DNA of 50,111 nucleotides, from the IMG/VR virus record IMGVR_UViG_3300003322_000802, positions 1-50,111 of that record; one strand, 5' to 3'. This stretch comes from a virus. How positions within the stretch are numbered: position 1 is the first letter of the stretch; each line of letters opens with the position of its first letter. The notes beneath the pieces were generated by a model. That model ran no database searches. It was not told the origin of the DNA and saw only the letters and a list, made by a program, of their open reading frames with translations. Below, piece after piece: positions 1 to 15,924 of this stretch. A program made the translations under genes and the position numbers.

Positions 1-24
1 CAACCCAGCCAACCCAGCCAACCC
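1..24. repeat. 9-bp tandem repeat CAACCCAGC (about 2.7 units); nt 1-23 are identical to nt 50089-50111
   Basis: Direct reading of both window ends. The repeat lies inside a coding frame and encodes QPSQPSQP. Confidence 0.95.
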
Positions 25-990
25 AACGCCTCCGTGGCCACGTCCGGATCCGCGGTGGAAGGCAACGAGCCGGACGATGATGACGAGGAGAGTCCCGTGC
101 CTAGTCGTAGCGAGCGCATCTGGCTTAAGCTGGGAGTGGAACTGGAGGGCGGCTGGAACGGCAGCCACGATGCCCTCACCGCGAAGGCCCGGCGATTCGG
201 GGCCAGCCACACCGGTGATGGCTCGGTCCGGGTCCCCGGTTGCTCCTTCAACAGCGAGGTGGCCACCAAGCCATACAAGAACCTGGGATCCTTGCTCAAG
301 TGCATCGATGCCCTGTACCCGGACGGGGTCAATCAGACCTGCGGCATGCATGTCCATGTCAGCTTCCCGGAGCACGTCTACAGTAAGCTGATGAGCGAGC
401 ATTTCTACTTCTACTTCCTGCTCCGCTGGGAGGCGTGGGGGAAACGGCTCAACATCCGTAACTCCAACTTCTGGTCGCGTCTTCGCGGGGAGAACAGCTA
501 CTGCGCCCGTAAGTTCGTACCGGAGAAGCAGGTGGCCGCGGCGGGTAAGAGCGGGGACCGGTACGCGCATCTCAACTACTGCTATTCTCACCTGGGAACC
601 ATCGAATGCCGGTTGCTCCCCATGTTCCAGGAGAAGGGCATCTCGGCGAAGGCAATTCGGGAGCTGATCTCCATCTACCAGGACTACATCGCGGAATTCG
701 GGGATGGTACCGAGGCACCGGAGGCGGTGATCGGTTCCATCGATGCCCCCTCCCTGGAGCCCGAGGAGATCAACCTGGAGGGTGAGATCGTGTCGGAGAT
801 GGATCTGATGATGGAGCCGGTGGTGGCTGAGATCGTGGTGGACCCCCGCCGCTTCCATCGGGAGCCTGGGATCCATAAGTTCCTCACCATCGACAACGGG
901 CATAACGGTGGCTACGACCACGACGACCAGATCTCTACCTATCATAACACCATCGTGGGCCTCATGACCGAGGCCGGGAGGGCAGCGTAG
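1..990 (+). CDS. Amidoligase_2-family (glutamine-synthetase-like COOH-NH2 ligase) protein, 3' part; the ORF enters from 49870 through the terminal overlap (alternative internal GTG start at 34)
   Basis: Motifs GVELEGGW, DGSV, CGMHVHV, DRYAHLNY and GTIECR match the Amidoligase_2 (PF12224) signature. Position 1 is in frame with the ORF at 49870. No SD precedes GTG 34. Confidence 0.8.
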   Translation, partial: QPSQPSQPNASVATSGSAVEGNEPDDDDEESPVPSRSERIWLKLGVELEGGWNGSHDALTAKARRFGASHTGDGSVRVPGCSFNSEVATKPYKNLGSLLKCIDALYPDGVNQTCGMHVHVSFPEHVYSKLMSEHFYFYFLLRWEAWGKRLNIRNSNFWSRLRGENSYCARKFVPEKQVAAAGKSGDRYAHLNYCYSHLGTIECRLLPMFQEKGISAKAIRELISIYQDYIAEFGDGTEAPEAVIGSIDAPSLEPEEINLEGEIVSEMDLMMEPVVAEIVVDPRRFHREPGIHKFLTIDNGHNGGYDHDDQISTYHNTIVGLMTEAGRAA

Positions 991-991
991 T

Positions 992-2002
992 ATGTGTGTG
1001 GCACTGATTATTCGCGGTAAGACCGCCCCCAGTCTGCGGCAGTTCGAGGCGATGGAGGCGTGCAATCAGGACGGAGCGGGGCTCGCCTGGGTGGAGGATG
1101 GCCGCGTCTGCTACTCCAAGGGGCACACGGCGAAGGAGATCCATCAGATGGTGGGGGAGTTGCCTCGACCCATCATGGTGCATTTCCGCTTCGCAACGGC
1201 AGGTGGCAAGACGGCGGCACTCTGCCACCCGTTCCCCCTCACCCGGCAGGTGGAGACCAGCGTGGTGGGCTACGCGGGCTCCGTCATGATGCACAATGGC
1301 CACTGGGGCGAGTGGGAATCCTACAAGAGCATCGTGTCCGACGACGAGAATCCGCTTCCGGAGGGCCCCTGGTCCGATACCCGCCTCGCCGCCTACGCCA
1401 TGGTCAACTACCCCAAGGATCTTGACACCATCGCGTCCATCGTGGGTGGCAAGCTGGCCATCATGAACGCGAAGGGCAAGATCCGCCAGTGGGGCCGCTG
1501 GGATACGCTGAAGGACCTGCCCGGTGTCTCGTTCAGTAACACCTACTGGCAGGGGTACTCCAAGTACCTAGATACCCGGGACAGATGGCGCTCTAGTGGC
1601 CCATACGACTACCTGAGCCGTAGTCACACGACTCCCGCTGCCAGCGCCACGGGTCGCACGGGTACCTGGGACCCGGAGCGCCGTGTGATCGTCTGGTCCG
1701 ACGGCACCGAGGAGCGCCCCAGCGTCAACCGCAGCGGCTGGGATGCGGATGAGGACACGATGCCTCAGCCCCGGAACACATACAGGAACTACGACGCCTG
1801 GAAGCGGTACCAGGAGGATGAGCAGATCCGCCGGGAGCACCGGGAGTGGATCCGCACCTGGGCCGAGGAGGAGGCTAAGTCCCTGGAGGACATCAGCCGC
1901 GAGGATACGGAGGTGGACGTGGAGTCCGCATGCCGATCCCTCCTTGATGAGGACGTAGCTCTCTCCCAGGCCTTCCTGCGCAGCTTCCGGGAGAGCGACT
2001 GA
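992..2002 (+). CDS. Class II (Ntn, Cys2-nucleophile) glutamine amidotransferase-like protein with an acidic C-terminal tail
   Basis: Starts MCVALII, then DGAGLAW. SD GGGAGGG lies upstream. It is separated by 1 nt from the amidoligase stop. Confidence 0.7.
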   Translation: MCVALIIRGKTAPSLRQFEAMEACNQDGAGLAWVEDGRVCYSKGHTAKEIHQMVGELPRPIMVHFRFATAGGKTAALCHPFPLTRQVETSVVGYAGSVMMHNGHWGEWESYKSIVSDDENPLPEGPWSDTRLAAYAMVNYPKDLDTIASIVGGKLAIMNAKGKIRQWGRWDTLKDLPGVSFSNTYWQGYSKYLDTRDRWRSSGPYDYLSRSHTTPAASATGRTGTWDPERRVIVWSDGTEERPSVNRSGWDADEDTMPQPRNTYRNYDAWKRYQEDEQIRREHREWIRTWAEEEAKSLEDISREDTEVDVESACRSLLDEDVALSQAFLRSFRESD

Positions 2003-2178
2003 TGAGGTTTAAGCTGGTGCAGCGTGACCATATGCCGCGGGACACCCGTCACTACGGGTCCATAGAGTCGATGGGTAGAGCCCGGAATTATCTGGAATGG
2101 ATGCACACCCATCAGCCGGTGAATACTTACACCATCAGCGGCCTGACTGAGAGGTATATAACGGTGCCCCATGACTAG
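2002..2178 (+). CDS. Small paralogue P1 (58 aa) of the MR[FYK][KR]hh family
   Basis: TGATG start/stop overlap with the upstream gene. N-terminus MRFKLVQRDH aligns with P2-P5. Confidence 0.55.
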   Translation: MRFKLVQRDHMPRDTRHYGSIESMGRARNYLEWMHTHQPVNTYTISGLTERYITVPHD

Positions 2179-2449
2179 AACAGCGATTCGCCTGCTCAGT
2201 GACATTGTCCAGGGGCCCATCCGTGACGTGGCGGTCCGACCCGCGGATCCCGTGGCCGCCTGCGTCATGAGGGCCCGAGCCTGTCGCCTCGCCGGTGATC
2301 TGGACAATGCGGAGCTGTGGCTGAATGAGGCCTGCTCCGTCTACCGAGCCCTGGGAGTGAAGAACACCAGCCGCACCTACCGCATCGAGAGCCGAGCGGT
2401 TGCGTGGGCGCGCACGGACGCCTGCGAGCCACCGGATGACGAAGTATGA
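2171..2449 (+). CDS. Hypothetical protein (92 aa)
   Basis: ORF with high third-position GC that overlaps its neighbours by a few nt. No motif recognised. Confidence 0.55.
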   Translation: MTRTAIRLLSDIVQGPIRDVAVRPADPVAACVMRARACRLAGDLDNAELWLNEACSVYRALGVKNTSRTYRIESRAVAWARTDACEPPDDEV

Positions 2450-2634
2450 GGTACAAGGTGGTTAAGGCAAACCATTGGACCGGCCCATGGTGCACCTGGG
2501 ACCATACGCCAGCCCTCCTCCACTCGTTCGCGCGTACCAGCTACGGTCAGAGCCGCATCAGAGCGGGTAACAATATGCTGCGACCACCGCTAGACCACGT
2601 CTCGTATCTACTGGTGTCGCTGGAGGATGCATGA
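2446..2634 (+). CDS. Small paralogue P2 (62 aa)
   Basis: MRYKVVKANHWTGPWCTW...RIRAGN is clearly similar to P3. Confidence 0.65.
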   Translation: MRYKVVKANHWTGPWCTWDHTPALLHSFARTSYGQSRIRAGNNMLRPPLDHVSYLLVSLEDA

Positions 2635-2650
2635 GCGCAGGAGCGAGGCC

Positions 2651-2848
2651 ATGAAGCTTAAGATCGTGAGAGGTGACCACTGGCGCGGACCCTGGGTGTG
2701 CTGGGCACCCAGCCCGCGAGTGCTTATCAACTGGGCATGTAGAGTCGACGCGTACAACCGTATTCGCGCTGGGAACACAGTCGACAGTCCGTCCAGACAC
2801 CATCCGTTCGTCGCCGTGGTCTGCGATGACAACTGGGTACCCCTATGA
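2651..2848 (+). CDS. Small paralogue P3 (65 aa)
   Basis: MKLKIVRGDHWRGPWVCW...RIRAGN. Internal ATG is preceded by AGGAGCGAGG. Confidence 0.65.
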   Translation: MKLKIVRGDHWRGPWVCWAPSPRVLINWACRVDAYNRIRAGNTVDSPSRHHPFVAVVCDDNWVPL

Positions 2849-2876
2849 CTCGCTGCGCTCGTACTCGGAGGGCCTC

Positions 2877-3083
2877 GTGAGGCGATGGAGACTCTACCGC
2901 AACGGCCACCAGCCGGGGCCCGTGTGGTACGGCACCGATACCCTATCCACGGCCGTTAGGTTCATGCGGTATCATGCAGATTACCCACCTAGTCAGTCTA
3001 CACACCCCTTGTCTGTCCATGAATACACCTACAACTGGCTACTGACCCACGAGGAGGTGCCCGATGCCGCAGAATCGCCCTGA
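2877..3083 (+). CDS. Small paralogue P4 (68 aa, GTG start)
   Basis: (V)RRWRLYRNGHQPGPVWYGT aligns with the P2/P3 N-termini. SD GGAGGG lies 5 nt upstream of the GTG. Confidence 0.5.
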   Translation: MRRWRLYRNGHQPGPVWYGTDTLSTAVRFMRYHADYPPSQSTHPLSVHEYTYNWLLTHEEVPDAAESP

Positions 3084-3642
3084 TTTCAGCTCGGCACGCA
3101 CCGGGGGTAGTGACGTGTGGCTCACGCCGCCCTGGATCCTGGATGCCATACGAGCGAATTACACCATCGCCCTGGACCCATGCACCGAGCCGAGCAACCC
3201 GACCGGGGCGCTGCTTAGGCTTTGCGGACAGGGTCCCGATTGGGATGATGGTCTGGCCGCTGACTGGGCTAATGATCTGACCCTGTTCGATGGAGACCCC
3301 CGCATCAGCGAGCGGGCTGGGATCTGCTACGTTAACCCGCCCTACGGGGGACTATCCCGTAACGGACCCTGGGGCCTCAAGATCGAGGGTGAGGCGGAGA
3401 AGGGGTGCCCCATCATCTCCCTACTTCCTGCCCGTACCAATCAGTCATGGTTCCAGCGGCTGGCCCGACTCACATTCGCCCACCACGGTAACGTCCTCTT
3501 CCTGGATCGGCGACTCAAGTTCCACGGGGCGGATGGGCAGCCGCACGCCACCCAGGCCCCGTTCCCCTCCGTCATCATGACCTTCAACTGCGAGATGCCC
3601 GGACCGCTCTGGGATAAGGGATGGATGCCATGCTGTCAGTGA
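3064..3642 (+). CDS. DNA N6-adenine methyltransferase, phage Dam family
   Basis: VWLTPPW near the N-terminus, catalytic NPPY, and the LLPARTNQSWF block, as in Pfam Dam (PF05869). Confidence 0.8.
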   Translation: MPQNRPDFSSARTGGSDVWLTPPWILDAIRANYTIALDPCTEPSNPTGALLRLCGQGPDWDDGLAADWANDLTLFDGDPRISERAGICYVNPPYGGLSRNGPWGLKIEGEAEKGCPIISLLPARTNQSWFQRLARLTFAHHGNVLFLDRRLKFHGADGQPHATQAPFPSVIMTFNCEMPGPLWDKGWMPCCQ

Positions 3643-3692
3643 TCCTTGTCCTCGCCTTCCTACTCTTCCTACGCGACTACTCCCGGCGGTGA
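3639..3692 (+). CDS. Hydrophobic micro-ORF (17 aa, VILVLAFLLFLRDYSRR)
   Basis: GTGA start/stop overlap with the methyltransferase gene. One predicted TM-like segment. Confidence 0.3.
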   Translation: MILVLAFLLFLRDYSRR

Positions 3693-3695
3693 TCA

Positions 3696-3869
3696 ATGAG
3701 ATACCGAGTCTACCGAAGGGAACACTACAGTGGATCCTACGTGGATTCCACCCTCAGCGTAACGGTGGCGACTAGACTGGCGGTCAACTACGAGACTAGA
3801 GGTCTATTCAATAGCCGCATCCACTCCCGTAACACAGGCGATTACCTAATTGTTAGGGTAGACGGCTGA
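3696..3869 (+). CDS. Small paralogue P5 (57 aa)
   Basis: MRYRVYRREHYSGSY...YLIVRVDG has the same N-terminal pattern as P1-P4. TGATG overlap with the next gene. Confidence 0.55.
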   Translation: MRYRVYRREHYSGSYVDSTLSVTVATRLAVNYETRGLFNSRIHSRNTGDYLIVRVDG

Positions 3870-4114
3870 TGGCGGACGTCGCACCCCAGTGTCCCACCTG
3901 CGGCTTCACCATGAAGCCCCTCTTCCAAACCCACTTCTGCGATGTCAACGAGTGTGATCTGCCACCGGAGAAGCGACGGAAGCAACCGGAGCCCTTGAAG
4001 AAGGCGGAAGCACCTGTGACCCACGTCTGCATGTGCCCCACCATCTTCGCCTACAGCTACGACTGGAAGCGCGGGGCCAAGGTGTGCCTGGTATGCAAGG
4101 GAGACATCTCATGA
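3869..4114 (+). CDS. Cys-rich (zinc-ribbon-like) hypothetical protein
   Basis: CPTC...C..C near the N-terminus and CLVC at the C-terminus. Coupled to both neighbours. Confidence 0.55.
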   Translation: MADVAPQCPTCGFTMKPLFQTHFCDVNECDLPPEKRRKQPEPLKKAEAPVTHVCMCPTIFAYSYDWKRGAKVCLVCKGDIS

Positions 4115-4473
4115 GCCTGATCATCGTAGCCGGACCCGCCGGCGCCGGTAAGACCACTTTCGCCCGCCGCCTTAGCCGTCTTCCCTATGAGACTGACAGG
4201 TATCTGGGTCTACCCAGAGATGAGCGTCCCGATGCCCTCTGGGTGGACATATGCGAGGACAACATGCAGGAGGATGCCGTTGTGGAAGGCTGCGAGGCGC
4301 TGAGAGCCGCCATTAAAACCGGCATGCGACGCTTCGTTGACATCGTCTACTGGGTGGAATGTGCCCAGCCCAAGGCCGAGTGTGGTGGTCTGACCACTCA
4401 GCAGGAGCGCTACCTGGCGAAGCTTCGCAAGGAACGGCCGGATGTGCCCATCTACCGAGTCACTAACTACTAG
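4111..4473 (+). CDS. Small P-loop NTPase/kinase-like protein (120 aa)
   Basis: Walker A GPAGAGKTT directly after the ATG. ATGA overlap with the upstream stop. Confidence 0.6.
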   Translation: MSLIIVAGPAGAGKTTFARRLSRLPYETDRYLGLPRDERPDALWVDICEDNMQEDAVVEGCEALRAAIKTGMRRFVDIVYWVECAQPKAECGGLTTQQERYLAKLRKERPDVPIYRVTNY

Positions 4474-4491
4474 ATAGCGAAGGGAGCAACG

Positions 4492-4656
4492 ATGGACATT
4501 GAAGAGGCTTTCACCGAGCTTGCCGAGAAGCTGAAGGACGTCTGCCTGGCGCGACCCATGGGAATCACCTGGGCCGATGTGATCCGGGTTATCAAGGAGG
4601 TTGCTGCCCATGCCGGCGACCTTGACTACGAGCGCCGCATGGGTGAGGACATGTAG
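4492..4656 (+). CDS. Hypothetical protein (54 aa)
   Basis: SD AAGGGAG lies upstream of the ATG, and codon use looks coding. Shorter than the ORF-track cut-off. Confidence 0.45.
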   Translation: MDIEEAFTELAEKLKDVCLARPMGITWADVIRVIKEVAAHAGDLDYERRMGEDM

Positions 4657-4660
4657 TCTC

Positions 4661-4688
4661 TTGACAAGGCTGAGCGGAGACATATAAT
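4661..4688 (+). promoter_or_regulatory. Near-consensus sigma70 promoter: TTGACA, 16 nt, TATAAT
   Basis: TTGACA at 4661-4666 and TATAAT at 4683-4688, immediately after a stop codon and ahead of a long ORF-free leader. Confidence 0.7.
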
Positions 4689-4740
4689 AGAGTGACCTGC
4701 CTCCCCTGCCGACTCACTGTCCGGGGAGGCCTGTTCAAGA

Positions 4741-5166
4741 GTACCCAGCAGCCATCATTGAGGCCCCCTGCCAAGGGGGAGGCACCGCTGATGGTTTGGC
4801 CACAGTGGACGGTATAATACGGTCCCGGAAGTGGATATCGACCGGGGTGCGGCCTTGGTGACGACCTGGGAGCCGTCGGAGCGAGCTGGGCGCTCTTGAG
4901 CAGGTTAGGCGGGTAAGTGAGAGGGCGGGTGGAGAGTCCCGCTGCAATGGCTATCCCCCACGTGGACGCGTGACTGGGACGGCGGCTATGACCGGGGCCG
5001 CTACCAGGGGAGGCTATGAAGTATACCCTTCCGAGATTCTCCCCGTGAATGTATACCAGGGGCGGGGGAGAGCGAGGCTGGGGAACAGCGAGGCGTTAGT
5101 CAGCCGATGACTAGGAAGTGGCTAGGCACCAGAGCTTAGCTACCCAGGGACAGGAGACCTGGGTAC
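4741..5166 (+). promoter_or_regulatory. Structured 5' leader with cobalamin-riboswitch-like core motifs (candidate riboswitch)
   Basis: AGAGGG plus hairpin GCGGG/CCCGC (4919-4942). UCCCCCACGUGGA (4954-4966). GUGACUGG, a hairpin, then CCAGGGGAGGC (4970-5014). B12-box core CAGGAGACCUG (5151-5161). Alternative 8-bp pairings for 5158-5166. Confidence 0.45.
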
Positions 5167-5217
5167 AGGCCCCCGGTCTGCCCGAAGATCTTAACAGGAA
5201 AGGTACGAGGAGTTCTT

Positions 5218-5433
5218 ATGCCGATGGTGTACATCAAGGATGATGAGAAACACGCGTGGATCAACACCGACAAGATTATCTCGGTGACTGCTTCTAGAAG
5301 GGGGATTGAATTCAACCTGGATATCGATAACGGAGCGGATATTACGTTCTGTTTCGGATCTCTGCGGAAGCGTCGAGAGGCGCTGCGGCTTCTGGGGCTG
5401 ACTATTCCTGGCTACGAGAACGAGGAGGGCTGA
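5218..5433 (+). CDS. Hypothetical protein (71 aa)
   Basis: SD GAGGAG lies 6 nt upstream. It is the first ORF after the leader. Confidence 0.6.
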   Translation: MPMVYIKDDEKHAWINTDKIISVTASRRGIEFNLDIDNGADITFCFGSLRKRREALRLLGLTIPGYENEEG

Positions 5434-5434
5434 G

Positions 5435-6127
5435 ATGGCGATGACGTACAAGTTCCCGACGTGGTGGGGTGGCGAGACTTTCATCGAGTCTACTGAGCCC
5501 CCGCAGATCCACAAGAAGCTGATCGCCATCCGCAAGGCGGTCGGTGGGCTGAAGGCAAAGAAGGAAGCCACGGGTCCCAACTTCGCGGTGCGTAAGGCCA
5601 GTGACCTTATGGCGAAGCTGCGAACGGCCATCGACAAGGAGGAGTGCCATGTGATGGTTGTCAGCCAGTCGATCATCACCGGGGACCTGGACAAGATCCC
5701 TCCTGATGGCAAGGGTCGCGTGTTCCGGTCGGCGGCTACCGTGACCACCCGGGTCCGTATCTGCGCCCCCGATGGCAGCTTCGTCGAGGGCGAGGGCTCC
5801 GGTGGTGGCGGAGATGCTGATGACAAGGCGGTAGGCAAGGCGTCGACGTACAGCTACAAGGACGCCCTCATCAAGCTGCTGACCCTGCCGGATGCGGATA
5901 CCGTGGACACGGATGACGAGGCGGAGCACGGTGCCGTTCCTGCCATCGGCGCTGAGGCGGGGATCATCATCGAGGCGGTCGCCAAGAGCGAGAGCCGTGA
6001 GGATCTGAAGCAGTATGCTGCCGACGCCAAGAAGCTGCGCCTCCATGAGCAGAAGGCCGTGGGTGACGCGATCCGGGCCCGTCTGGCGAGTCTCGCTGGT
6101 AAGGGCGAAGCCGGGGGTGGCAAGTGA
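5435..6127 (+). CDS. erf: ERF-family single-strand annealing recombinase
   Basis: The block GGGGDADDKAVGKASTYSYKDALIKLL matches the ERF (PF04404) core. An exonuclease and an SSB gene follow. Confidence 0.75.
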   Translation: MAMTYKFPTWWGGETFIESTEPPQIHKKLIAIRKAVGGLKAKKEATGPNFAVRKASDLMAKLRTAIDKEECHVMVVSQSIITGDLDKIPPDGKGRVFRSAATVTTRVRICAPDGSFVEGEGSGGGGDADDKAVGKASTYSYKDALIKLLTLPDADTVDTDDEAEHGAVPAIGAEAGIIIEAVAKSESREDLKQYAADAKKLRLHEQKAVGDAIRARLASLAGKGEAGGGK

Positions 6128-6282
6128 CCGAGGATACCTGGTTCGCCGCGATCATCGGTGCCTCCCTCCTTACGGGTCTGGCCATCCTCGCAATCTGCCT
6201 CACGGCGGCCTCGTTTCATGAGGACAACAGCAAGGTGGACATCGTGCGTGCAACGATCGGCTGCAGAGCGGAGAAGCAGTGA
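6124..6282 (+). CDS. Small membrane protein (52 aa)
   Basis: GTGA overlap with the erf stop. TM segment AAIIGASLLTGLAILAICLTAA. Confidence 0.45.
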   Translation: MTEDTWFAAIIGASLLTGLAILAICLTAASFHEDNSKVDIVRATIGCRAEKQ

Positions 6283-6368
6283 TCCGGCTGGGGATTCTGC
6301 TGGTGGCCCTGTGCTTCATTCTGGAGATGGTGGGTAAGCGTGGGATGGACCAGGGCAAGCTCAATTGA
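6279..6368 (+). CDS. Hydrophobic micro-ORF (29 aa)
   Basis: GTGA overlap with the previous micro-ORF. Sequence VIRLGILLVALCFILEMVG. Confidence 0.3.
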   Translation: MIRLGILLVALCFILEMVGKRGMDQGKLN

Positions 6369-7125
6369 CCGGGCGCTAGCCTGCCTGGGTTCCACCATCC
6401 TCCCCGCTGGCCCGGATCATCGATCCGAGTCGACGCTGGAAGCCGCCGCCTGGGGCACCACCATGCACCACTGGAAGGAGACGGGGGAGGTGCTGGCTCC
6501 GGATGGGTACAAGAAACTCGAACCCCTGGTCACCAAACGCCTCAGGAAGGCCTGGGGAACCCCTGAAGCCATCGAGGAGGCCCGTACCCGCCTCTGGCCC
6601 TCGGATGGGCGCCACGAGCTTTCTGTGGCCGTTCACACGGTCAACGCCAATCTCCACTACCCCGATGTGGTGTTTGAGCACGGGGCGGATCAGGCTAGGT
6701 GGACAGACCAGTGGAACGATGAGTGGGTTACCGGCTCCATGGACTACCTGGGGGATGTGCTGGGGGATCCGTGGGTGGATGACCTGAAGACGGGGCGCCA
6801 CCCCACGGCCCCCGATGACCCTCAGATCCTCTTCTACGCTCTCGCAGCCTGGCTCATGGGTGAGAAGAAAGCTGACAGGGTTGTGACATCGATCACCCAC
6901 TGGCCGAGGTCCCCGGTTGGGGGTCTTCCCGATAGGTACTGGGGTGAGATCAGCGCGGAGGATCTTGACAGCTTCCACCGGAGACTTATAATGGGTAGAC
7001 GGAAGCGAGCGTGGGCCGATCCCGAGCGACCGGAGCTACAGGTGGGCCCTCACTGTAGGTACTGCCCAGCGCGAGCTAACTGTCCCGCGCTACGGGAGGC
7101 TCATGAGTCTGGTGAAGAGTGGTAA
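6340..7125 (+). CDS. PD-(D/E)XK Cas4/RecB-like exonuclease with a 4-Cys cluster
   Basis: VDDLKTG (D-x-K), QILFYALA (QxxxY), an N-terminal Cys plus C-terminal CRYCPARANC (CX2CX5C). Confidence 0.75.
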   Translation: MGWTRASSIDRALACLGSTILPAGPDHRSESTLEAAAWGTTMHHWKETGEVLAPDGYKKLEPLVTKRLRKAWGTPEAIEEARTRLWPSDGRHELSVAVHTVNANLHYPDVVFEHGADQARWTDQWNDEWVTGSMDYLGDVLGDPWVDDLKTGRHPTAPDDPQILFYALAAWLMGEKKADRVVTSITHWPRSPVGGLPDRYWGEISAEDLDSFHRRLIMGRRKRAWADPERPELQVGPHCRYCPARANCPALREAHESGEEW

Positions 7126-7360
7126 GAATGGCAAGAACATCTACAAGCTGTCCGATGACCTGTACACGTACGGGATGCCGGGGGAGTTTGGACCGCGAGT
7201 TGAGCGGTATATCGTGCGCAAAGATCGCGCGACGAGGGGACGTCCGGCTTACCGTCGCGTCCCAGGTGGAGTTATTCCCCCAGGGCTCAAGCCGGAAGTG
7301 AATCCTCCCATGAAGGTGATGGAGGAGTTGCTGCTGGCGGATAAGACGGCGCAGGCGTGA
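7103..7360 (+). CDS. Hypothetical protein (85 aa)
   Basis: ORF with a coding-like composition. No motif recognised. Confidence 0.5.
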   Translation: MSLVKSGKNGKNIYKLSDDLYTYGMPGEFGPRVERYIVRKDRATRGRPAYRRVPGGVIPPGLKPEVNPPMKVMEELLLADKTAQA

Positions 7361-7365
7361 CTCAG

Positions 7366-7443
7366 ATGTGGTGGCTATGGGCCTATCTTGGGTTCATGGC
7401 TTGTGGTTTTGGGTTTCTGGTCTACATGACAAAGGATGACTGA
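7366..7443 (+). CDS. Hydrophobic micro-ORF (25 aa, MWWLWAYLGFMACGFGFLVYMTKDD)
   Basis: TGATG overlap with the ssb start. One TM-like segment. Confidence 0.35.
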   Translation: MWWLWAYLGFMACGFGFLVYMTKDD

Positions 7444-7817
7444 TGCATTTCGCTACGTTCACGGGTAAGGTTCAGGAAGTAAAGGAGTTCGGCAAGGCGG
7501 TCAAGTTGACGCTGGTGTCGCTGCCGGGGAAGGACAGCGGCTACGAGCCCGAGTACATGGAGGCCGTGTTCAAGGCCGACAGCTGGCAGGGCAAGGCGAT
7601 CCTGGCCCTACAGAAGGGTGACGACGATGTCACCATCGCCGGCAGTGTGAAGCGCAAGAAGTGGGCCAATGGCAACGGGTACTCGCAGGAGATCCTGTTC
7701 GGGGAGCTGCGGATCCCCTGGTCGCTGCGGAAGCGGGAGAAGGCTGAGGGCGCCGTCTCCACCTCGCCCCCGAAGGCGAGCGAAGCGGGCGGTGGTCTCG
7801 ACGACCTCCCTTTCTGA
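7443..7817 (+). CDS. ssb: Single-stranded DNA-binding protein
   Basis: OB-fold-sized protein with a Gly/Pro-rich linker and the canonical acidic tail ending DDLPF. Confidence 0.8.
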   Translation: MHFATFTGKVQEVKEFGKAVKLTLVSLPGKDSGYEPEYMEAVFKADSWQGKAILALQKGDDDVTIAGSVKRKKWANGNGYSQEILFGELRIPWSLRKREKAEGAVSTSPPKASEAGGGLDDLPF

Positions 7818-7862
7818 CGGGGTGTGCCGGCTGCCCGGCGTGTACTGATTCCGGAGGGTACT

Positions 7863-8336
7863 ATGGCTAGGAAGATCAGCTTCACACGGGCGGAAAGGGA
7901 CGCGGTCGAGGGTGCTGCTAACTTGGACTGCACCACTGACAGCATGAAGGCTTCGCACAGGAAGGCCTTGGACTCTCTCCTGGCCAAGATGGACGCTGCC
8001 TCGGCAGAGCCTGAATCCACTCCACTGACCGGAGGTCCGGGCGGAGCCGCGGCTCTCTTCTGTGAGATCCTAAAGGGGCGCATTGTGGAACCCCAGACCC
8101 GACCGAGCTGGGCCATGCTCGCTAAGGCTCTGCGCGAGGCGGAATGGACCGAGGCGGAGATGCGGGCGCTGGATCTCAGCTGGGCAACCCGTCCCATTCC
8201 CGCGGCGACCGTGGCACTCAAGGGCAAGGACTGGCTGGCCCGGCAGCGGCCCGCAGCGTTCTCGGCAAAGAGTAACCGCCCTGCCGACATGTTCTTCGAC
8301 ACCTACCACGGGGATGGGGATGAGGATCCAGAATGA
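7863..8336 (+). CDS. Hypothetical protein; by position possibly a helicase loader or replication initiator
   Basis: SD GGAGGG lies before ATG 7863. ATGA-type coupling to the helicase gene. The functional suggestion rests on position only. Confidence 0.4.
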   Translation: MARKISFTRAERDAVEGAANLDCTTDSMKASHRKALDSLLAKMDAASAEPESTPLTGGPGGAAALFCEILKGRIVEPQTRPSWAMLAKALREAEWTEAEMRALDLSWATRPIPAATVALKGKDWLARQRPAAFSAKSNRPADMFFDTYHGDGDEDPE

Positions 8337-9247
8337 CGGTAGACTTCCGACGATTCAGCGATATCGTACGCGAGGAGAAGGACAACCTAATCCGCCAGAG
8401 GGCCGATCGTGACGCTGGGCGCGATGTGCTGGTTCAGCTGCCTACTGGGTTGCGGGATCTGGATCGCAACGGCGGGCTGGAGCTGGATATTCTCACTGTC
8501 ATCGCGGCGCCTACGGGAGAGGGAAAATCGGCTCTTAAGCTGCAACTGGCTCGCGCCGCAGCTCAGGCCGGTTACGAGGTCCTCGCCCTCGACTTTGAAG
8601 ACCCCGCGAGAAAGACAGCCCATCGTTCCCTCGCCGGAGCCACGGGCATTGGCGCGCACAAGCTCGGGCGCCTCGCCTTTGAAGAGGGAGACGTACCCCG
8701 GCTGGAAGCGGCATCCGCTGAGATTGACACCTGGGGGAGTCGCGTTAGGCACCATGCCGGACTCCTTACCGCTGACCAGGTCCGCGAGGCCTGCTACAGC
8801 AACCCGGGAGCCCGGCTGGTACTCGTTGACTATGCTCAGGCGCTTCCAGGTCGAGATGGTAGTCTTGAGCGAGAGATTGCGGACCTCGCTTGGGATCTTG
8901 GGACCGATGCCCAACGAAATCACCGTGCAGTTGTGGTATTCTCTCAGACCATCGCAGCAATTGAGGAGCGTGGTGCCCGTCGATTCGAGAGGGATGGTAC
9001 AATTGATGGCTACCGTCCAGGCCCTGGAAAGAGCTATATCAGCTGGGCACGGGCTCTGGCGGAGAGAGCTAAGGCCGTCTGGTATCTCTTTCGTCCCGGT
9101 CGCTGGGCTCTGAAGCACGGTATCGCAGGGGCCCGGGATGACACCATGGAGATCATCGTGGATAAGAGCAACTTCTCACTGGAGGGCCTGGTGACCGTCG
9201 GCTGGGACGGGGCTGCCGCCCGACTCTATGATAGGAAGGCGAAATGA
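8333..9247 (+). CDS. DnaB-like replicative helicase (RecA-type C-terminal domain only)
   Basis: TGLRDLD, Walker A APTGEGKS, Walker B LVLVDYAQAL, and SQTIAAIEERG, laid out as in DnaB_C. Confidence 0.75.
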   Translation: MTVDFRRFSDIVREEKDNLIRQRADRDAGRDVLVQLPTGLRDLDRNGGLELDILTVIAAPTGEGKSALKLQLARAAAQAGYEVLALDFEDPARKTAHRSLAGATGIGAHKLGRLAFEEGDVPRLEAASAEIDTWGSRVRHHAGLLTADQVREACYSNPGARLVLVDYAQALPGRDGSLEREIADLAWDLGTDAQRNHRAVVVFSQTIAAIEERGARRFERDGTIDGYRPGPGKSYISWARALAERAKAVWYLFRPGRWALKHGIAGARDDTMEIIVDKSNFSLEGLVTVGWDGAAARLYDRKAK

Positions 9248-9555
9248 GTCTACCTGACGACGAGGAACTTCCGGAGTACATCCCGGAGCTGCCCGACTGC
9301 GACATGGAGCCGGAGGAGGTGGAGGCGCTGGAGGTACATTACCTGGAGTGTGCCGAGCCCCTGGTGAGCATCTCCGGGCCTCTGGTGGGACATGAGACGC
9401 CGTACAATACCGGCGGCATTCACGGTCTCCTGATGACCCGCAAGGAAGCGTACATCTGGGCGCGTAAGAAGTACGGAAAGCACCTACACGAGATGGCCTG
9501 GCACCCCCATCGCTGGGTGGCTCGGGTGAAGGAGAGTTACTTCAATGGGCGGTAG
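9244..9555 (+). CDS. Hypothetical acidic protein (103 aa)
   Basis: ORF coupled to both neighbours. Confidence 0.5.
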   Translation: MSLPDDEELPEYIPELPDCDMEPEEVEALEVHYLECAEPLVSISGPLVGHETPYNTGGIHGLLMTRKEAYIWARKKYGKHLHEMAWHPHRWVARVKESYFNGR

Positions 9556-9886
9556 CAATGACCTGGACTTTAAGCGGATCCTACGAGAGGAACAAGAGGA
9601 ACGTGAGCGGGTCGCCAAGGAGATGCGCGAGGGACTTTCCAGAGCTCAAGCCAGGGTGAACGGACCAAAGGAAGACCCCATCAACCACCCCAGCCACTAC
9701 ACCAAGGGTGGCATCGAGACAATCGATGTCATCGAGGCCTGGGGACTTGGTTTCTGCCTGGGCAACACGGTGAAGTACATCAGCCGAGCGGGTAGGAAGG
9801 ATCCAGGGAAGCTGCTGGAGGACCTGAAGAAGGCCCGGTGGTATCTGGACCGGGAGATCAGTACCCTGGAGAAGAAGAGTGAGTGA
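9545..9886 (+). CDS. DUF3310-family phage protein
   Basis: NHPSHYTKGGIETIDVIEAWGLGFCLGNTVKYISRAGRK...EDLKKARWYL is the characteristic DUF3310 signature. Confidence 0.75.
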   Translation: MGGSNDLDFKRILREEQEERERVAKEMREGLSRAQARVNGPKEDPINHPSHYTKGGIETIDVIEAWGLGFCLGNTVKYISRAGRKDPGKLLEDLKKARWYLDREISTLEKKSE

Positions 9887-9893
9887 CCTCCAG

Positions 9894-9992
9894 ATGCATA
9901 ACTACATCGACGCCACGCTCTGGCTGGCGGTTCTCTACCTCCTCGCCATGCATATCAAGGGGCCACCAACCAATGGCAGTATCCGCGGCTGA
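9894..9992 (+). CDS. Hydrophobic micro-ORF (32 aa, MHNYIDATLWLAVLYLLAMHIKG...)
   Basis: High GC3 in this frame, whereas the overlapping 9883 frame has poor codon use. Confidence 0.4.
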   Translation: MHNYIDATLWLAVLYLLAMHIKGPPTNGSIRG

Positions 9993-10824
9993 GCTGAAGC
10001 ACGATGCCGATTTCCCCATCCTCCACGTTGGCGTCAAGCCAGGGGACTCCGCCATCTTCTGGTCGGATGTCCATGCGCCGATTCATGACAAGTTGGCAAT
10101 GGGACTGGTGGTTCAGGCGCACCGGCTCATCCGGCCTAGGCTCTCGGTTGCCGGAGGAGATATCTTTGACGTCATGGCCCTCTCGAGCCACCGTAAGGCT
10201 GCTCGTCAGCAACTCGAGAACGGGTCACTCGCGGGCGAGGCTGACTCTCTGGCAGCGGAGCTTGATGAGATTGCGCGAGCCTCGGACTATGCGGTTATTC
10301 TCCCGGGGAACCACGAGGGGCGAGTAGAGAGGCTGGTGGATGATGTTCCTGGACTTCATGGTGTGCTTAAGTGGCACACTCCTTTCGATAGCGTTCTTGG
10401 GCTGTGGGATTGTCTCCCTACGGGGGCGGCTGTACGGCTGGGGCCTTTGCTGCTGTGTCACGGGCATGATCTTGCTGGCTCCCTTGCTGCTAGCCCTGCA
10501 CTATCGGTTCTTCGGAACTACCCCGGCCAGTCGACCATCTTCGGCCACTGCCACAAGATCGACGTCGCCACCCGACCCAGCCTCCGTAATGGGCACCAGG
10601 TTGTGCATGGAGCTTGGACCTTCGGGCACCTGTCCGACCCCCGGAGGCAGGGCTACGCAGCCGCGTTCCGAGGCGCCTGGCAGCAGGGATTCGGGCACAT
10701 CGAGTTCTGGGACCGGGGAGACGGCCGGCTCGGGTTCACCTGCCATCCCATCCGAATCTACCCAACAGTGACCGGAGGCCGCGTCTGCCGGGTCGCCGGG
10801 GTTACCCTGAGAGCGGAGGCTTAG
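9973..10824 (+). CDS. Calcineurin-like metallophosphoesterase
   Basis: WSDVHAP, GGDIFD, PGNHE, CHGHD and FGHCH motifs occur in the canonical order. Confidence 0.75.
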   Translation: MAVSAAELKHDADFPILHVGVKPGDSAIFWSDVHAPIHDKLAMGLVVQAHRLIRPRLSVAGGDIFDVMALSSHRKAARQQLENGSLAGEADSLAAELDEIARASDYAVILPGNHEGRVERLVDDVPGLHGVLKWHTPFDSVLGLWDCLPTGAAVRLGPLLLCHGHDLAGSLAASPALSVLRNYPGQSTIFGHCHKIDVATRPSLRNGHQVVHGAWTFGHLSDPRRQGYAAAFRGAWQQGFGHIEFWDRGDGRLGFTCHPIRIYPTVTGGRVCRVAGVTLRAEA

Positions 10825-11022
10825 ATGCCAGCGTACGAGGGAGAGGATCACTGGACTGCCCTGATAGAGACAGGGCACTACGGCTGGAAAAACCAGGTGC
10901 TTCTGGAGCAACGAATCCGAAGGCTGGGCCGTAATCTAGCTATCGCTGGGGCTCTGGCTGCTGCTTACGAAAAGGGCTTTATGTCCTGCAGGCTGGACTG
11001 CGCCCACCGGGACTGGGACTGA
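10825..11022 (+). CDS. Hypothetical protein (65 aa)
   Basis: ORF tightly packed between its neighbours. Confidence 0.45.
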   Translation: MPAYEGEDHWTALIETGHYGWKNQVLLEQRIRRLGRNLAIAGALAAAYEKGFMSCRLDCAHRDWD

Positions 11023-11468
11023 TGCCCCGCTTCCAGAGCTTCCGAGCCGACTGCGGGCCCACTGCCCTCTGGCATGCGCTGGAGGCTCTGGGCCACTCCA
11101 GGAGTCATGATGAGCTTGTCACACTGTGCCGAACCACCGCCGAGGGGACCTCACCAGTGCAGCTGGTACGAGCCATCAGGACCCTGGCCGAACCGCTGTC
11201 CCTCTACGGGCCGATGGAGATCAAGGATGCGAAATCAGACATTGCGGGACTTCGTCTTCGGAGCCTCATCGGTGACGGTCGCCCAGTTATTCTTCTTGTT
11301 GACGACTGGGAGCACTGGGTGGCCTGTGTGGGTTGTCTGGGCCATCGGCTACTTGTCAGCGACTCTGCAGATCTGCGTCAGCTCATCTACTACCGACCGG
11401 ACGAGTTACTGAGCCGCTGGGGTCACTCGGCGGGAGGGAGAGGAGCCTACTATGCAATTGGAGTCTGA
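11022..11468 (+). CDS. Papain-fold cysteine peptidase, C39-like
   Basis: Q-x5-DCGPTAL (oxyanion Gln plus nucleophile Cys) and a downstream EHWVA His, spaced as in C39-type peptidases. Confidence 0.5.
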   Translation: MPRFQSFRADCGPTALWHALEALGHSRSHDELVTLCRTTAEGTSPVQLVRAIRTLAEPLSLYGPMEIKDAKSDIAGLRLRSLIGDGRPVILLVDDWEHWVACVGCLGHRLLVSDSADLRQLIYYRPDELLSRWGHSAGGRGAYYAIGV

Positions 11469-11871
11469 GCTACTGAGGCCCCATCGCCTCATCATCGCAG
11501 GGTCCCGGGGCCTGTCCATCAGCGACGAGGAGATAAGCGACGCCGTATTCACCATGGGCATCCACGTTACCGAGGTGGTCAGCGGGCTGGCGCCTGGGCC
11601 GGACAGTGACGGGAAGCGATGGGCGGAGCGCTGGGGCATCCCAGTGACTGAGTTCCCCGCCAACTGGAAGAAGTACGGGAAGGCAGCCGGACCGCTTCGC
11701 AATAAGCAAATGGCTGACTACGGGGACTACCTCCTGGCCTTCTGGGATGGGGAGAGCAGAGGAACCGCCGACATGATCCAGCGCATGAACCTGCTGGGGA
11801 AACCGGGGTACGTTGTCACAGTCGCCAAGCGAGCCCTCGAGCCGCGTCCCGGCATCGATACCGGCCCCTAG
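11452..11871 (+). CDS. SLOG-fold DUF2493-family protein
   Basis: RLIIAGSR, VVSGLAPGPD, PANWKKYGKAAGPLRN and FWDGESRGT match the DUF2493 pattern. Confidence 0.7.
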   Translation: MQLESELLRPHRLIIAGSRGLSISDEEISDAVFTMGIHVTEVVSGLAPGPDSDGKRWAERWGIPVTEFPANWKKYGKAAGPLRNKQMADYGDYLLAFWDGESRGTADMIQRMNLLGKPGYVVTVAKRALEPRPGIDTGP

Positions 11872-12655: not shown

Positions 12656-12834
12656 CCCATAGACACAGAGAGATTTGCATCCTGGATCAGTCGGATGCTT
12701 GCTGGGGGTACACGTGTGACAGTACCCACATGACCTGGGGTTACTTCTTCCATGCGGTGGCCATAGCCGGGGCTCTGGAGATGGCATCAGACCCATACAC
12801 TAACTGGGAAGCCAACGGTGCCTACTACGGCTGA
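12649..12834 (+). CDS. 61-codon aromatic/Cys-rich ORF bridging the exo/pol gap
   Basis: Overlaps the exo stop (ATGGTGA) and the pol start. Moderate GC3. No motif recognised. Confidence 0.3.
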   Translation: MVTHRHREICILDQSDACWGYTCDSTHMTWGYFFHAVAIAGALEMASDPYTNWEANGAYYG

Positions 12835-14392: not shown

Positions 14393-14613
14393 GCTGGCTT
14401 GTCAGGCTAATGAACAGGGACGGTACCATGGCCCGACAGTACTACTGTGAGGCTACTTACCTTGGCGAGGCGATCATAGTGCCCCACTCGTATAACATAG
14501 CTGACTATCGGGGCATCACCTCGCCATTCGATACCGGCCGGACCACTTACCACTACACCAGCAACACAAGACTCAGCTGCGGCCGTTGTGTGGCCATCTA
14601 CCAGGAAAGATAA
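14389..14613 (+). CDS. Hypothetical protein (74 aa), locally lower GC
   Basis: ORF coupled to the polymerase stop. Confidence 0.45.
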   Translation: MSWLVRLMNRDGTMARQYYCEATYLGEAIIVPHSYNIADYRGITSPFDTGRTTYHYTSNTRLSCGRCVAIYQER

Positions 14614-15921: not shown

Positions 15922-15924
15922 GCA

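Follow-up and report, generated by a model that had tools for sequence, protein, structure and literature searches.

A large pseudoknotted leader RNA at the head of the recombination module in a group of uncultured soil phages

The window, a 50,111-nucleotide stretch of viral DNA (IMG/VR record IMGVR_UViG_3300003322_000802), carries genes for ERF, a PD-(D/E)XK nuclease, a DnaB-like helicase, DNA polymerase A, an RNA ligase, an RNR and ThyX, and a long minus-strand block of large ORFs (22-42.5 kb) that is taken to be the structural genes. Its largest intergenic gap (4657-5217) precedes a co-directional gene array of ~15 kb. The initial annotation had placed in this gap a perfect promoter followed by a leader of ~530 nt devoid of any convincing ORF, and both observations were confirmed. 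The promoter agrees with the consensus at every position (Table 1) and only two such perfect sites occur in positions 1-20000; a looser pattern, TTGACN-N15-18-TANNNT, is found six times in the window, compared with 1.0 expected. The ORFs of the gap are all short (28-70 aa), and independent gene calls on identical Logan contigs placed no gene within it. Coding potential was rejected on the lack of codon periodicity, on frame-breaking indels and on stops in all six frames.

Six further metagenomic phage loci were found to be syntenic with the window, their ERF proteins being 50-67% identical. There are therefore seven members (window, L003, L004, L005, L006, L010 and L022, of which L005 is cut by a contig end), and in all seven the element lies directly upstream of the ERF module. 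The first downstream gene varies: it is a small ORF in most members and ERF itself in L004. The small protein was considered as an obligate partner and rejected, being poorly conserved and absent in L004. A model built from four members retrieved the divergent L010 (34.7 bits) and L022 (33.8 bits) at the syntenic site. All belong to one narrow lineage of uncultured soil phages, and with only seven members from it synteny carries little independent weight. No cultured relative was recognized, since the leader and the first 25 kb had no DNA match among GenBank phages and the putative large terminase gave one match only, with 20% identity.

Wider searches added no member. Scanning IMG/VR with two RNA patterns gave no match; scanning it for ERF gave none with a single sequence and, with an alignment, one distant locus (L021) that lacks the RNA. 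In scans of GTDB genomes and JGI metagenomes, the only genuine match was L006's own contig (L017): four others (L013, L014, L019, L020) were chance matches in coding regions, L015 and L018 were partial look-alikes of hairpin A, and L016 contained just the searched words with an unrelated repeat and no R1 match. The more distant ERF loci L007, L008, L011 and L012 have neither the gap nor the RNA. A catalogue of about 10,000 candidate viral RNAs was derived from IMG/VR 3.0, with motifs of 29-151 nt and at least three IMG/VR hits required (PMC10690425). As the two RNA patterns have no IMG/VR match, the present RNA is, judging from the catalogue's criteria, unlikely to be included there.

The promoter is kept at the equivalent place wherever the contig extends far enough. 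L003, L004, L006 and L010 have TTGACR-17 followed by TATAAT, TAGACT or TACTAT, and a conserved ACCU lies 6-7 nt 3' of the -10 box in four members whose promoter is complete (window, L003, L004 and L006); in L022, ACCU comes after TAGAAT at the contig start. From this arrangement we infer that transcription starts at A4695, the first base of ACCU.

The window's version of the RNA spans ~490 nt, of which ~270 nt form a conserved core, and it ends with its 3' tail at 5183. From 5' to 3' it consists of a hairpin, a modular slot and the core, in which hairpin A is followed by stem B, enclosing hairpins C and D, and by helices E-H. Two long-range pseudoknots connect the P1 loop with the strand preceding hairpin A, and the hairpin D loop with the 3' tail (Table 1).

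Table 1. Features of the leader RNA in the window, followed by the sequence words listed in the initial annotation.
Feature	Position	Strand	Basis or remark
Sigma-70-type promoter, TTGACA-16-TATAAT	4661..4688	+	matches 12/12 consensus positions
P1 hairpin, stem 4699-4706/4723-4730, 16-nt loop with conserved GCCGAYYCRCYG	4699..4730	+	
PK2 5' strand CUCACU in P1 loop, partner 4916-4921	4713..4718	+	
Variable domain V, multi-branch, ~20-bp closing stem 4729-4749/4885-4905	4729..4905	+	
P0 5' strand GGGUA, closing the core, tentative partner 5179-5183	4911..4915	+	
PK2 3' strand AGUGAG	4916..4921	+	
Hairpin A, 5-bp stem, UGGAGAGU loop	4925..4942	+	covariation
Stem B, 4943-4958/5007-5023	4943..5023	+	RNAalifold, covariation
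Inside stem B: hairpin C 4959-4972, junction ACUGGGAC, hairpin D 4981-5002		+	
PK1 5' strand GACCGGGG in hairpin D loop, partner 5171-5178	4990..4997	+	
Helices E and F	5028..5118	+	MFE folds, covariation
Helix E, inner stem 5038-5046/5063-5071, loop with conserved UACCAGG 5053-5059		+	
Hairpin F, 5097-5102/5108-5113		+	covariation
Hairpin G, conserved CCAGAG loop motif	5120..5141	+	
Hairpin H, ACCCAGG-GACAGGAGA-CCUGGGU, containing the 'B12 box' 5151-5161	5142..5164	+	
3' tail: PK1 3' strand CCCCGGUC 5171-5178, P0 3' strand UGCCC 5179-5183	5171..5183	+	
Linker, non-conserved, with Shine-Dalgarno GAGGAG (5207-5212), before ATG 5218	5184..5217	+	
Word GTACCCAG	4741..4748		
Word AGAGGG	4920..4925		start listed 1 nt too early
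Word GCGGG-TGGAGAGT-CCCGC	4925..4942		
Word TCCCCCACGTGGA	4954..4966		
Word GTGACTGG	4970..4977		
Word GGCGGC/GCCGCT	4981..5002		
Word CCAGGGGAGGC	5004..5014		
Word TACCCAGG	5141..5148		
Word CAGGAGACCTG	5151..5161		listed as 'B12 box'
Word CCTGGGTAC	5158..5166		

The folding z-score of the leader is -2.8, and the alignments were compared with slid controls and shuffles. The 5' core comprises 34 pairs. With four sequences these were 99.3% paired (40-48% in slid controls) and 16 of them showed compensatory changes (1-2 in controls); with six sequences, 95% of the cells were paired (38-49% in slid controls) and compensatory changes affected 21 of the 34 pairs (3-6 in controls). None of 500 shuffles reached the observed values in either test. 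Several G-U pairs, some of them in stem B, are invariant or nearly so, rendering the fold specific to the + strand RNA. Comparative sequence analysis establishes the conservation of this RNA, its strand, its helices and pseudoknots and its non-coding nature, and the covariance-model searches establish its absence from Rfam. Positions 4695-5183 almost certainly encode a genuine new structured RNA with a complex fold that was previously uncatalogued.

The P1 stem covaries (GCCUCCCC/GGGGAGGC in the window, GCCAGG/CCUGGC in L003, CUUUCCCGCG/CGCGGGAAG in L006). PK2 exists in four all-Watson-Crick versions at aligned positions (CTCACT:AGTGAG, CTCACC:GGTGAG, TCCACT:AGTGGA and TTCGCT:AGCGAA), with double-sided changes in four of six pairs and 24/24 cells paired. 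A 10-bp long-range pairing (4699-4708/5005-5014) was discarded, as it is not conserved in L003 and the local P1 hairpin is preferred. Hairpin A is 100% paired, with compensatory changes in 3/5 pairs; its UGGAGAG is invariant in four members and reads UGGAGAA in L022. Compensatory changes were also observed in 10/11 pairs of the main stem-B helix, 4/5 pairs of hairpin C and 3/7 pairs of hairpin D. PK1 covaries in four versions: the window, L003 and L004 share GACCGGGG:CCCCGGUC, L006 has GACGGGG:CCCCGUC, L010 has GACGGAGC:GCUCCGUC and L022 has UACGAGGG:CCCUCGUA. Each leader contains the complement only once, and for the 8-mers such a complement arises by chance in 0.2-0.3% of shuffles.

Further 3', L003, L004 and L006 have a long helix equivalent to E in their MFE folds, and hairpin F covaries (UAGUCA/UGACUA in the window, UGAGCA/UGCUCA in L003, L004 and L005). 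Hairpin G is GGGCU/AGCCC in L003 and GAGCU/AGCUC in L005, the stem of the window being shifted by one register; hairpin H is CCCAGG-GAGA-CCUGGG in L003 and L004. Judging from complementarity, the 3' arm of hairpin H can alternatively pair with the E-loop UACCAGG; in L010, E-loop GGGACUGG is complementary at 8/8 positions to pre-tail CCAGUCCC. The predicted helix P0 that would close the core is tentative: RNAalifold pairs 27-31 with 313-317, with A-U/G-U/G-C variation, and L010 has GGGUA:UACUC; the helix is not evident in L022, and its 5' strand may alternatively pair with the 5'-terminal ACCU (4695-4698).

The slot between P1 and the core is occupied by a domain of 180 nt in the window and in L003, for which RNAalifold gave 48 pairs, 14 of them with compensatory changes. 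L004 has nothing there, and three relatives have a tRNA or tRNA-like element. Such an element replaces domain V in L006 (4318-4390) and L022, and lies upstream of the core in L010 (1190-1246). The L022 element (99-170) is a canonical tRNA-Trp (ARAGORN; Rfam tRNA model, 58.4 bits) embedded in the transcript of the RNA; ARAGORN found no tRNA or tmRNA in the window. At the other end, the called start codon lies 14 to 90 nt from the tail, depending on the member. The distance is just 14-22 nt in L004 and L010, and the true ERF start of L022 is probably ~30 nt from the tail instead of the called 90 nt.

The initial annotation had read the leader as a possible cobalamin riboswitch, with ZTP as an alternative, controlling an operon that includes a B12-dependent RNR. 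Its short words are all present in the leader (Table 1), and three of the hairpins that it drew (A, D and H) are real helices. In addition, hairpin A resembles the GGUG..A..CC loop, a loop-to-tail pairing exists that superficially recalls the L5-L13 kissing loop, and an RNR large subunit is encoded at 16913-18622, class II being weakly indicated by a match to the RNR-II insertion domain (20.4 bits, under the 27-bit cutoff). However, the covariance models fail outright. With lax filters, RF00174, RF01482, RF01689 and RF01750 gave no match on the 701-nt leader (4600-5300) at E ≤ 10, nor did any other Rfam family at that threshold; the window had no Rfam match at gathering score, cobalamin and ZTP included, and the cobalamin and ZTP models gave none in the six relatives at E ≤ 1. 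The word that had suggested ZTP, GUGACUGG, is the 3' arm of hairpin C with the start of the junction.

The 'B12 box' is the loop and 3' arm of hairpin H and is conserved in no relative: its place is taken by a GAGA tetraloop in L003 and L004 and by a loop enlarged by a 35-nt insertion in L005, and L006, L010 and L022 are unrelated there. Among members, CAGGAGACCUG occurs in the window only. The 11-nt core pattern of the box recurs at 32801, on the minus strand and inside a structural gene; 0.33 matches are expected per window, and at least two occurred in 4 of 100 shuffles. The covariation-supported core has a three-way junction in a long stem and two loop-to-strand pseudoknots, instead of the four-way junction P3-P6 with an L5-L13 kissing loop. 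The leader also lacks an expression platform. Of the two mutually exclusive helices that had been proposed as a switch, the local one with 5141-5148 is hairpin H, and the distal one with 4741-4748 is not conserved, that segment being occupied by the closing stem of domain V and not complementary in L003. No support was found for control of the RNR, 11.7 kb downstream. In conclusion, the strong promoter and the non-coding structured leader stand, and a divergent adenosylcobalamin or ZTP riboswitch has practically no chance of being the correct identity. Short-word matching to a riboswitch consensus can flag a real RNA and yet misname it.

The size of the RNA, the number of its tertiary pairings and its modular peripheral slot favour an RNA that would work as a folded molecule in its own right and not as a ligand-sensing switch, as do the embedded tRNA-Trp of L022, the tRNA-like elements of L006 and L010, the 12/12 promoter, and the non-conserved 14-90 nt linker that separates its 3' end from the start codon. 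Host RNA polymerase would transcribe it from the consensus promoter that is conserved in front of it, ahead of the ERF/nuclease recombination module, so that a stable, abundant RNA would be made early, together with tRNAs, and the recombination genes would be expressed through read-through. By analogy with GOLLD and ROOL, we tentatively favour such a stand-alone phage RNA, made on one transcript with the recombination genes; as the covariance models of GOLLD and ROOL do not match, the analogy concerns function alone. A search for a defined 3' end or a terminator after the RNA found none; on present evidence the RNA is therefore physically the 5' leader of the ERF operon, and a role in cis fits equally well with its occurrence solely in the ERF context.

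That the core belongs to a new class of large functional RNAs with sophisticated biochemistry is rather doubtful. As a ribozyme, it could free both itself and the embedded tRNA from the operon transcript by processing; as an RNA-only assembly, it could carry or shield a tRNA cargo, as proposed for GOLLD; as a cofactor or decoy, it could act alongside the ERF/nuclease recombination module or counter a host defence system. No RNA-handling partner protein (RT, Ro60, Cas or the like) was recognized in the window; there is only the RNA ligase, encoded 9.4 kb downstream.

A cis-acting role could take the form of processive antitermination of the put/EAR/conAn2 type, the nascent RNA modifying the transcribing polymerase so that, having started at the strong promoter, it would traverse the whole long operon of recombination and replication genes. 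The RNA starts where transcription from a conserved strong promoter is inferred to begin, exactly the position that known RNA antiterminators occupy (PMC8191782, PMC9378689), it heads the ~15 kb array with no terminator-like site between it and the genes in the window, and a terminator-like hairpin lies 2.2 kb downstream (7373-7401), with a weaker counterpart at the equivalent place in L006. We nevertheless regard antitermination as rather unlikely. Terminator-like sites show no excess in the operon (5, compared with an expected 9.4, Rho-dependent sites not being predictable); the + strand downstream of the RNA has none in L004 and a single weak one in L006; a second conserved strong promoter 2.3 kb downstream lessens the need for a long-range effect; excision of the tRNA in L022 would cut the nascent RNA from its polymerase-proximal part; and no Rfam family matched (EAR included, if present in the library). 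Control of the ERF module by an orphan riboswitch or a protein-binding operator, responding to an unknown metabolite or to a phage or host protein, for instance in autoregulation by single-strand-annealing or binding proteins, is an improbable explanation. It would account for a 5' leader with highly conserved unpaired segments (UGGAGAG, ACUGGGAC, GAAGUA, ACCAGG and CCUGGGUA), for helices that are mutually exclusive (GGGU has the 5' ACCU and the 3' tail as alternative partners; CCUGGGUA has the E loop and the nearby ACCCAGG) and for the proximity of tail and start codon in L004 and L010. It accounts poorly for the lack of a conserved terminator or of a helix sequestering the Shine-Dalgarno sequence, for the variable linker and first gene, and for an element far larger than known aptamers; moreover, we know of no riboswitch leader with an embedded tRNA.

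The location immediately upstream of recombination and replication genes, and a shallow minimum of the cumulative GC skew near 3-4 kb, could also point to an element acting as DNA: a site of recombination or packaging, or an origin of replication, which might be RNA-primed in the way of ColE1 RNA II. This is very improbable, because several invariant or nearly invariant G-U pairs would become A-C mismatches if the opposite strand or a duplex cruciform were the folded form, and covarying loop-to-strand pseudoknots are an RNA signature. Neither iterons nor an AT-rich unwinding region were found, and the structural genes, with them probably the packaging site, lie far away.

The stand-alone RNA that we favour resembles GOLLD and ROOL in being phage-encoded, large and multi-pseudoknotted and in its association with tRNAs, a tRNA or tRNA-like element lying within the transcript in three of seven members. 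In GOLLD, tRNAs are sometimes embedded in a linker, and a conserved 3' region follows a variable 5' region (PMC12286853), a division also seen in the present RNA. In contrast, the GOLLD and ROOL models matched neither the window nor its relatives, the core is ~270 nt instead of ~580 to >800 nt, the RNA is the leader of a recombination operon without a terminator, and its approximately seven members all come from soil metagenomes. With put, EAR and conAn2 it shares the place of a structured RNA directly after a strong promoter heading a mobile-element or phage operon, and its size is similar to the 260-600 bp of conAn2 regions (PMC8191782). It differs from put and EAR in being far larger and more complex, from conAn2 in that no ConAn1-like partner gene was recognized, and from all three in the absence of sequence or model similarity, in the non-enrichment of predicted terminators downstream and in the tRNA embedded in some members.

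The leader of the T4 gene 32 mRNA contains a pseudoknot and serves in the autoregulation of a single-strand-DNA-binding protein. Both leaders are pseudoknotted and precede a phage gene for single-strand-DNA recombination or replication; that of T4 has a small single pseudoknot and an unstructured tract, whereas the present RNA is a multi-domain molecule of ~490 nt. To our knowledge, bacterial or phage RNAs of such size with several covariation-supported pseudoknots are rare. The known large classes (RNase P, group I and II introns, GOLLD, ROOL and OLE) are ribozymes or RNA-only assemblies. To these the present RNA adds a compact and well-defined family, with a clear promoter, a tRNA-accepting slot and a fixed place at the start of a recombination module in phages. 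The ~270-nt core has a convenient size for probing and cryo-EM, and the family provides a new system for testing the role of ornate phage RNAs and why tRNAs accompany them.

The initial annotation had proposed a consensus promoter followed by a leader with no convincing ORF, and both were borne out. The gap that the promoter opens (4657-5217) is the largest intergenic gap of the window, has on either strand no ORFs but short, overlapping ones, and holds no gene according to independent gene calls on two identical Logan contigs (L001 and L002). The leader folded better than shuffled controls (z = -2.8 for the + strand, -2.25 for the minus strand). Before the gap, the longest-ORF calls at 3869-4114 and 4033-4473 (+) overlap; because the Logan calls begin the P-loop protein at the equivalent of window 4111 (120 aa), its 146-aa GTG start is probably wrong.

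Because no DNA relative of the window was found among GenBank phages, homologues were sought via the flanking recombination protein ERF (5435-6127, Pfam ERF), and the contigs of the matches were fetched. The sole match of the putative large terminase (40784-42475, minus strand) was Bacillus phage S4-3, at 20% identity; judged by sequence comparison, the phage is of a lineage without a cultured representative. Contigs with an ERF of 50-67% identity along most of the protein shared the order Dam methylase, small ORFs, gap, usually a small ORF, ERF, PD-(D/E)XK nuclease and DnaB-like helicase. A gene-free gap of 380-690 nt precedes the ERF module in contigs L003, L004, L006, L010 and L022 (L005 is cut at the contig end), and the gaps of related contigs can be aligned with one another. 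Wherever the contig extends far enough, a sigma-70-type promoter opens the gap at the same place (TTGACR, 16 or 17 nt, then TATAAT, TAGACT or TACTAT), and of six members with a known 5' end, five keep ACCU at the expected start site, following the -10 box or promoter; the transcription start of the leader was placed from promoter geometry alone. In the leader alignment, substitutions are without codon phase, every frame is disrupted by indels (1, 5, 8 and 10 nt), and every member has stops in all six frames; on the alignment, the leader region is non-coding.

The distant ERF loci L007, L008, L011, L012 and L021 contained no such element. Pattern scans gave no match in IMG/VR (two RNA patterns), chance matches only in GTDB genomes, and in JGI metagenomes the L006 contig again and nothing else. 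The family (seven members, two of them aligned by the model) is therefore rare, and its range is a single lineage of soil phages not yet in culture; two of the samples are farmland soils by name.

For four cores, RNAalifold predicted 76 pairs; compensatory double changes were seen in 28 of these. Covariation was tested on the best-defined 5' domain of the core (window 4906-5030), with 34 pairs in six helices fixed. With four sequences, 99.3% of cells were paired (40-48% in slid controls) and 16 pairs had double-sided changes (1-2 in slid controls); with six sequences, the values were 95% (38-49%) and 21 pairs (3-6), counts that lean towards the model since the last two rows were fitted to it. 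In both tests, none of 500 shuffles reached the observed value. A number of G-U pairs, invariant or almost so, would turn into A-C mismatches if the opposite strand were the one to fold; therefore, the folded species is + strand RNA. That the element acts at the DNA level is very improbable.

A covariance model built from the four-sequence core set (R1) found the divergent L010 and L022 at the syntenic position, with 34.7 and 33.8 bits (rough E-values of ~6e-6, and ~1e-7 to 5e-6, respectively), and over the window nothing beyond the leader itself. The near-identical contigs L015 (4416-4529) and L018 (3816-3929) were rejected as members: they scored 16.7 bits against R1, for hairpin A only, and both have, after the end of an IstB-like ATPase gene, a hairpin (GGGGUGGAGAGGCCC) and short GACGA/GACGAG repeats. 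An unrelated metagenomic contig, L016, was picked up solely through the shared word GGUGGAGAG; its unit GCUGGUGGAKAGRCC...UCCAAGCGCCAG is present twice (~875-1100).

Two long-range pseudoknots complete the fold. In PK1, the loop of hairpin D pairs with the 3' tail; changes are double-sided at five of eight positions, and the complement occurs once per leader (for the 8-mers, in 0.2-0.3% of shuffles). In PK2, the conserved P1 loop of the 5' hairpin pairs with the single strand just ahead of hairpin A; in four members, pairing is Watson-Crick in each of the 24 cells, with covariation at four of the six pairs. A P1-loop partner for this strand was sought and not found in L010 and L022, and both of these PK2-less members have a tRNA or tRNA-like element upstream of the core. 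A constrained full-length structure model was made for the window RNA. Tentatively, a short helix (P0) beside PK1 is the probable closure of the core; its 5' strand may instead pair with the 5' ACCU.

Features of the leader RNA, its relatives and the following genes (pseudoknot strands separated by a colon)
Feature	Sequence	Coordinates	Strand	Description
Promoter	window	4661-4688	+	TTGACA-16-TATAAT, perfect 12/12 consensus match
Hairpin A	window	4925-4942	+	loop UGGAGAG nearly invariant
Stem B	window	4943-4958 with 5007-5023	+	long; surrounds hairpin C, junction and hairpin D
Hairpin C	window	4959-4972	+	inside stem B
Junction	window		+	ACUGGGAC; inside stem B, between hairpins C and D
Hairpin D	window	4981-5002	+	inside stem B
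P0	window	4911-4915 with 5179-5183	+	short helix beside PK1
Helix E	window	3' half	+	long; loop with conserved UACCAGG
Hairpin F	window	3' half	+	covaries
Hairpin G	window	3' half	+	conserved CCAGAG loop
Hairpin H	window	3' half	+	
PK1	window, L003, L004	window 4990-4997 : 5171-5178		loop D GACCGGGG : tail CCCCGGUC
PK1	L006			loop D GACGGGG : tail CCCCGUC
PK1	L010			loop D GACGGAGC : tail GCUCCGUC
PK1	L022			loop D UACGAGGG : tail CCCUCGUA
PK2	window	4713-4718 : 4916-4921		P1 loop CUCACU : pre-A AGUGAG
PK2	L003			P1 loop CUCACC : pre-A GGUGAG
PK2	L004			P1 loop UCCACU : pre-A AGUGGA
PK2	L006			P1 loop UUCGCU : pre-A AGCGAA
Slot	window, L003			180-nt multi-branch domain; closing stem ~20 bp, covarying
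Slot	L004			empty
Slot	L006	4318-4390		tRNA-shaped; CUA (amber-reading) anticodon; non-canonical D and T loops
Slot	L022	99-170		canonical tRNA-Trp(CCA); ARAGORN; Rfam tRNA 58.4 bits (gathering score 29)
tRNA-like element	L010	1190-1246		D-armless; directly after promoter
Second promoter	window	6965-6992	+	TTGACA-16-TATAAT, perfect 12/12; within nuclease gene 3' end
Second promoter	L004	6467-6494		same place
Second promoter	L006	6809-6836		same place
Terminator-like hairpin	window	7373-7401	+	13-bp stem, then TGTGGTTTTG
Terminator-like hairpin	L006	7287-7302		weaker equivalent

The content of the slot between P1 and the core differs among members. In L006 and L022, a tRNA or tRNA-like element separates the 5' hairpin from the core, and the elements of this sort in L022, L006 and L010 all belong to the leader transcript, on the 5' side of the core.

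The initial annotation had read the leader as a cobalamin riboswitch, with ZTP as the alternative. The words that it listed were all present at their positions, to within 1 nt. Rfam 15 gave zero matches at gathering score over the whole window, and the 701-nt leader, scanned with lax filters at E<=10, matched no cobalamin, AdoCbl-variant or ZTP model, yielding only two junk matches, sX13 (wrong strand) and CsrC; at E<=1, five related leaders likewise matched none of these models. The supposed 'B12 box' is the loop and 3' arm of hairpin H; the same spot is a GAGA tetraloop in L003 and L004, a 35-nt insertion in L005 and unrelated sequence in L006, L010 and L022. Its 11-nt core occurs again at 32801, within a structural gene (chance expectation 0.33 per window). 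The cobalamin riboswitch was rejected, as no covariance model matched and the box is unconserved and recurs by chance; the leader is almost certainly not one. The switching partner proposed with it, 4741-4748, is used by the closing stem of the slot domain, and in L003 it lacks complementarity to CCUGGGUAC. The conserved CCUGGGUA (5158-5165) can pair either with the local ACCCAGG of hairpin H (5142-5148) or with the E-loop UACCAGG (5053-5059). L010 favours the long-range option (GGGACUGG:CCAGUCCC), and the local partner is absent from L006 and L010 and imperfect in L022. The two options could represent a conformational switch, or one pairing could have replaced the other in particular lineages.

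No terminator-like site was seen directly 3' of the leader RNA. The linker to the first gene has a Shine-Dalgarno sequence, is unconserved and measures 14-90 nt according to gene calls; in L022 (90 nt), the true ERF start is probably ~30 nt from the RNA. The first gene is a loosely conserved small ORF, or ERF itself in L004. In the window, genes for ERF, the PD-(D/E)XK nuclease, DnaB-like helicase and DUF3310 are followed further on by those for a 3'-5' exonuclease, DNA polymerase A, RNA ligase, RNR large subunit and ThyX. The proposed class II RNR (16913-18622, +) is indeed an RNR large subunit (strong Ribonuc_red_lgC match); assignment to class II is plausible; the class II insertion domain scores 20.4 bits, below cutoff, and no small-subunit gene was seen among the annotated window proteins. 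The RNA ligase (14614-15921, +; Pfam RNA_ligase and PHA02142 OB-fold domain) belongs to the replication operon, and one is next to ERF in L011 too (998-2113); a link to tRNA repair, or to the leader RNA, is conceivable. The second promoter has the extended motif CGGAGAC-N-TATAAT in common with the first. The terminator-like hairpin lies just past an 85-aa gene closing the recombination module and may be where the first transcription unit ends.

The promoter of the leader RNA is conserved, and its fold is strand-specific, with about ten helices, two pseudoknots and a modular slot. The RNA heads a long operon, as would a cis-acting antitermination RNA of the put, EAR or conAn2 sort (PMC8191782, PMC9378689), but downstream terminators are not enriched and a second promoter is present downstream, and we consider this reading unlikely. 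An orphan riboswitch or protein operator would fit the conserved junction nucleotides and the two pairs of mutually exclusive helices; however, there is no expression platform, and this reading is less probable still. Our tentative preference is for a stable, abundant RNA that would work as a folded molecule, like GOLLD or ROOL, a possibility to which the RNA's size and the count of its tertiary pairings, the variable peripheral domain, the embedded tRNAs, the promoter of consensus strength and the lack of a fixed geometry to the ribosome-binding site all point.

The family appears new, because no Rfam 15 family matches the leader RNA and the two RNA search patterns had no match in IMG/VR; a large catalogue of candidate viral RNAs drawn from IMG/VR covers motifs of 29-151 nt only, with at least three IMG/VR occurrences (PMC10690425). 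The general kind, an ornate tRNA-associated phage RNA or a structured operon leader, is already known, with a small though real chance of the biochemistry being categorically new. The phage RNAs GOLLD and ROOL have multiple pseudoknots and occur near tRNA islands; the GOLLD linker sometimes holds tRNAs, and GOLLD is conserved in its 3' region and variable in its 5' region (PMC12286853). The leader RNA resembles GOLLD in being multi-pseudoknotted and phage-borne, with embedded tRNA elements in relatives.
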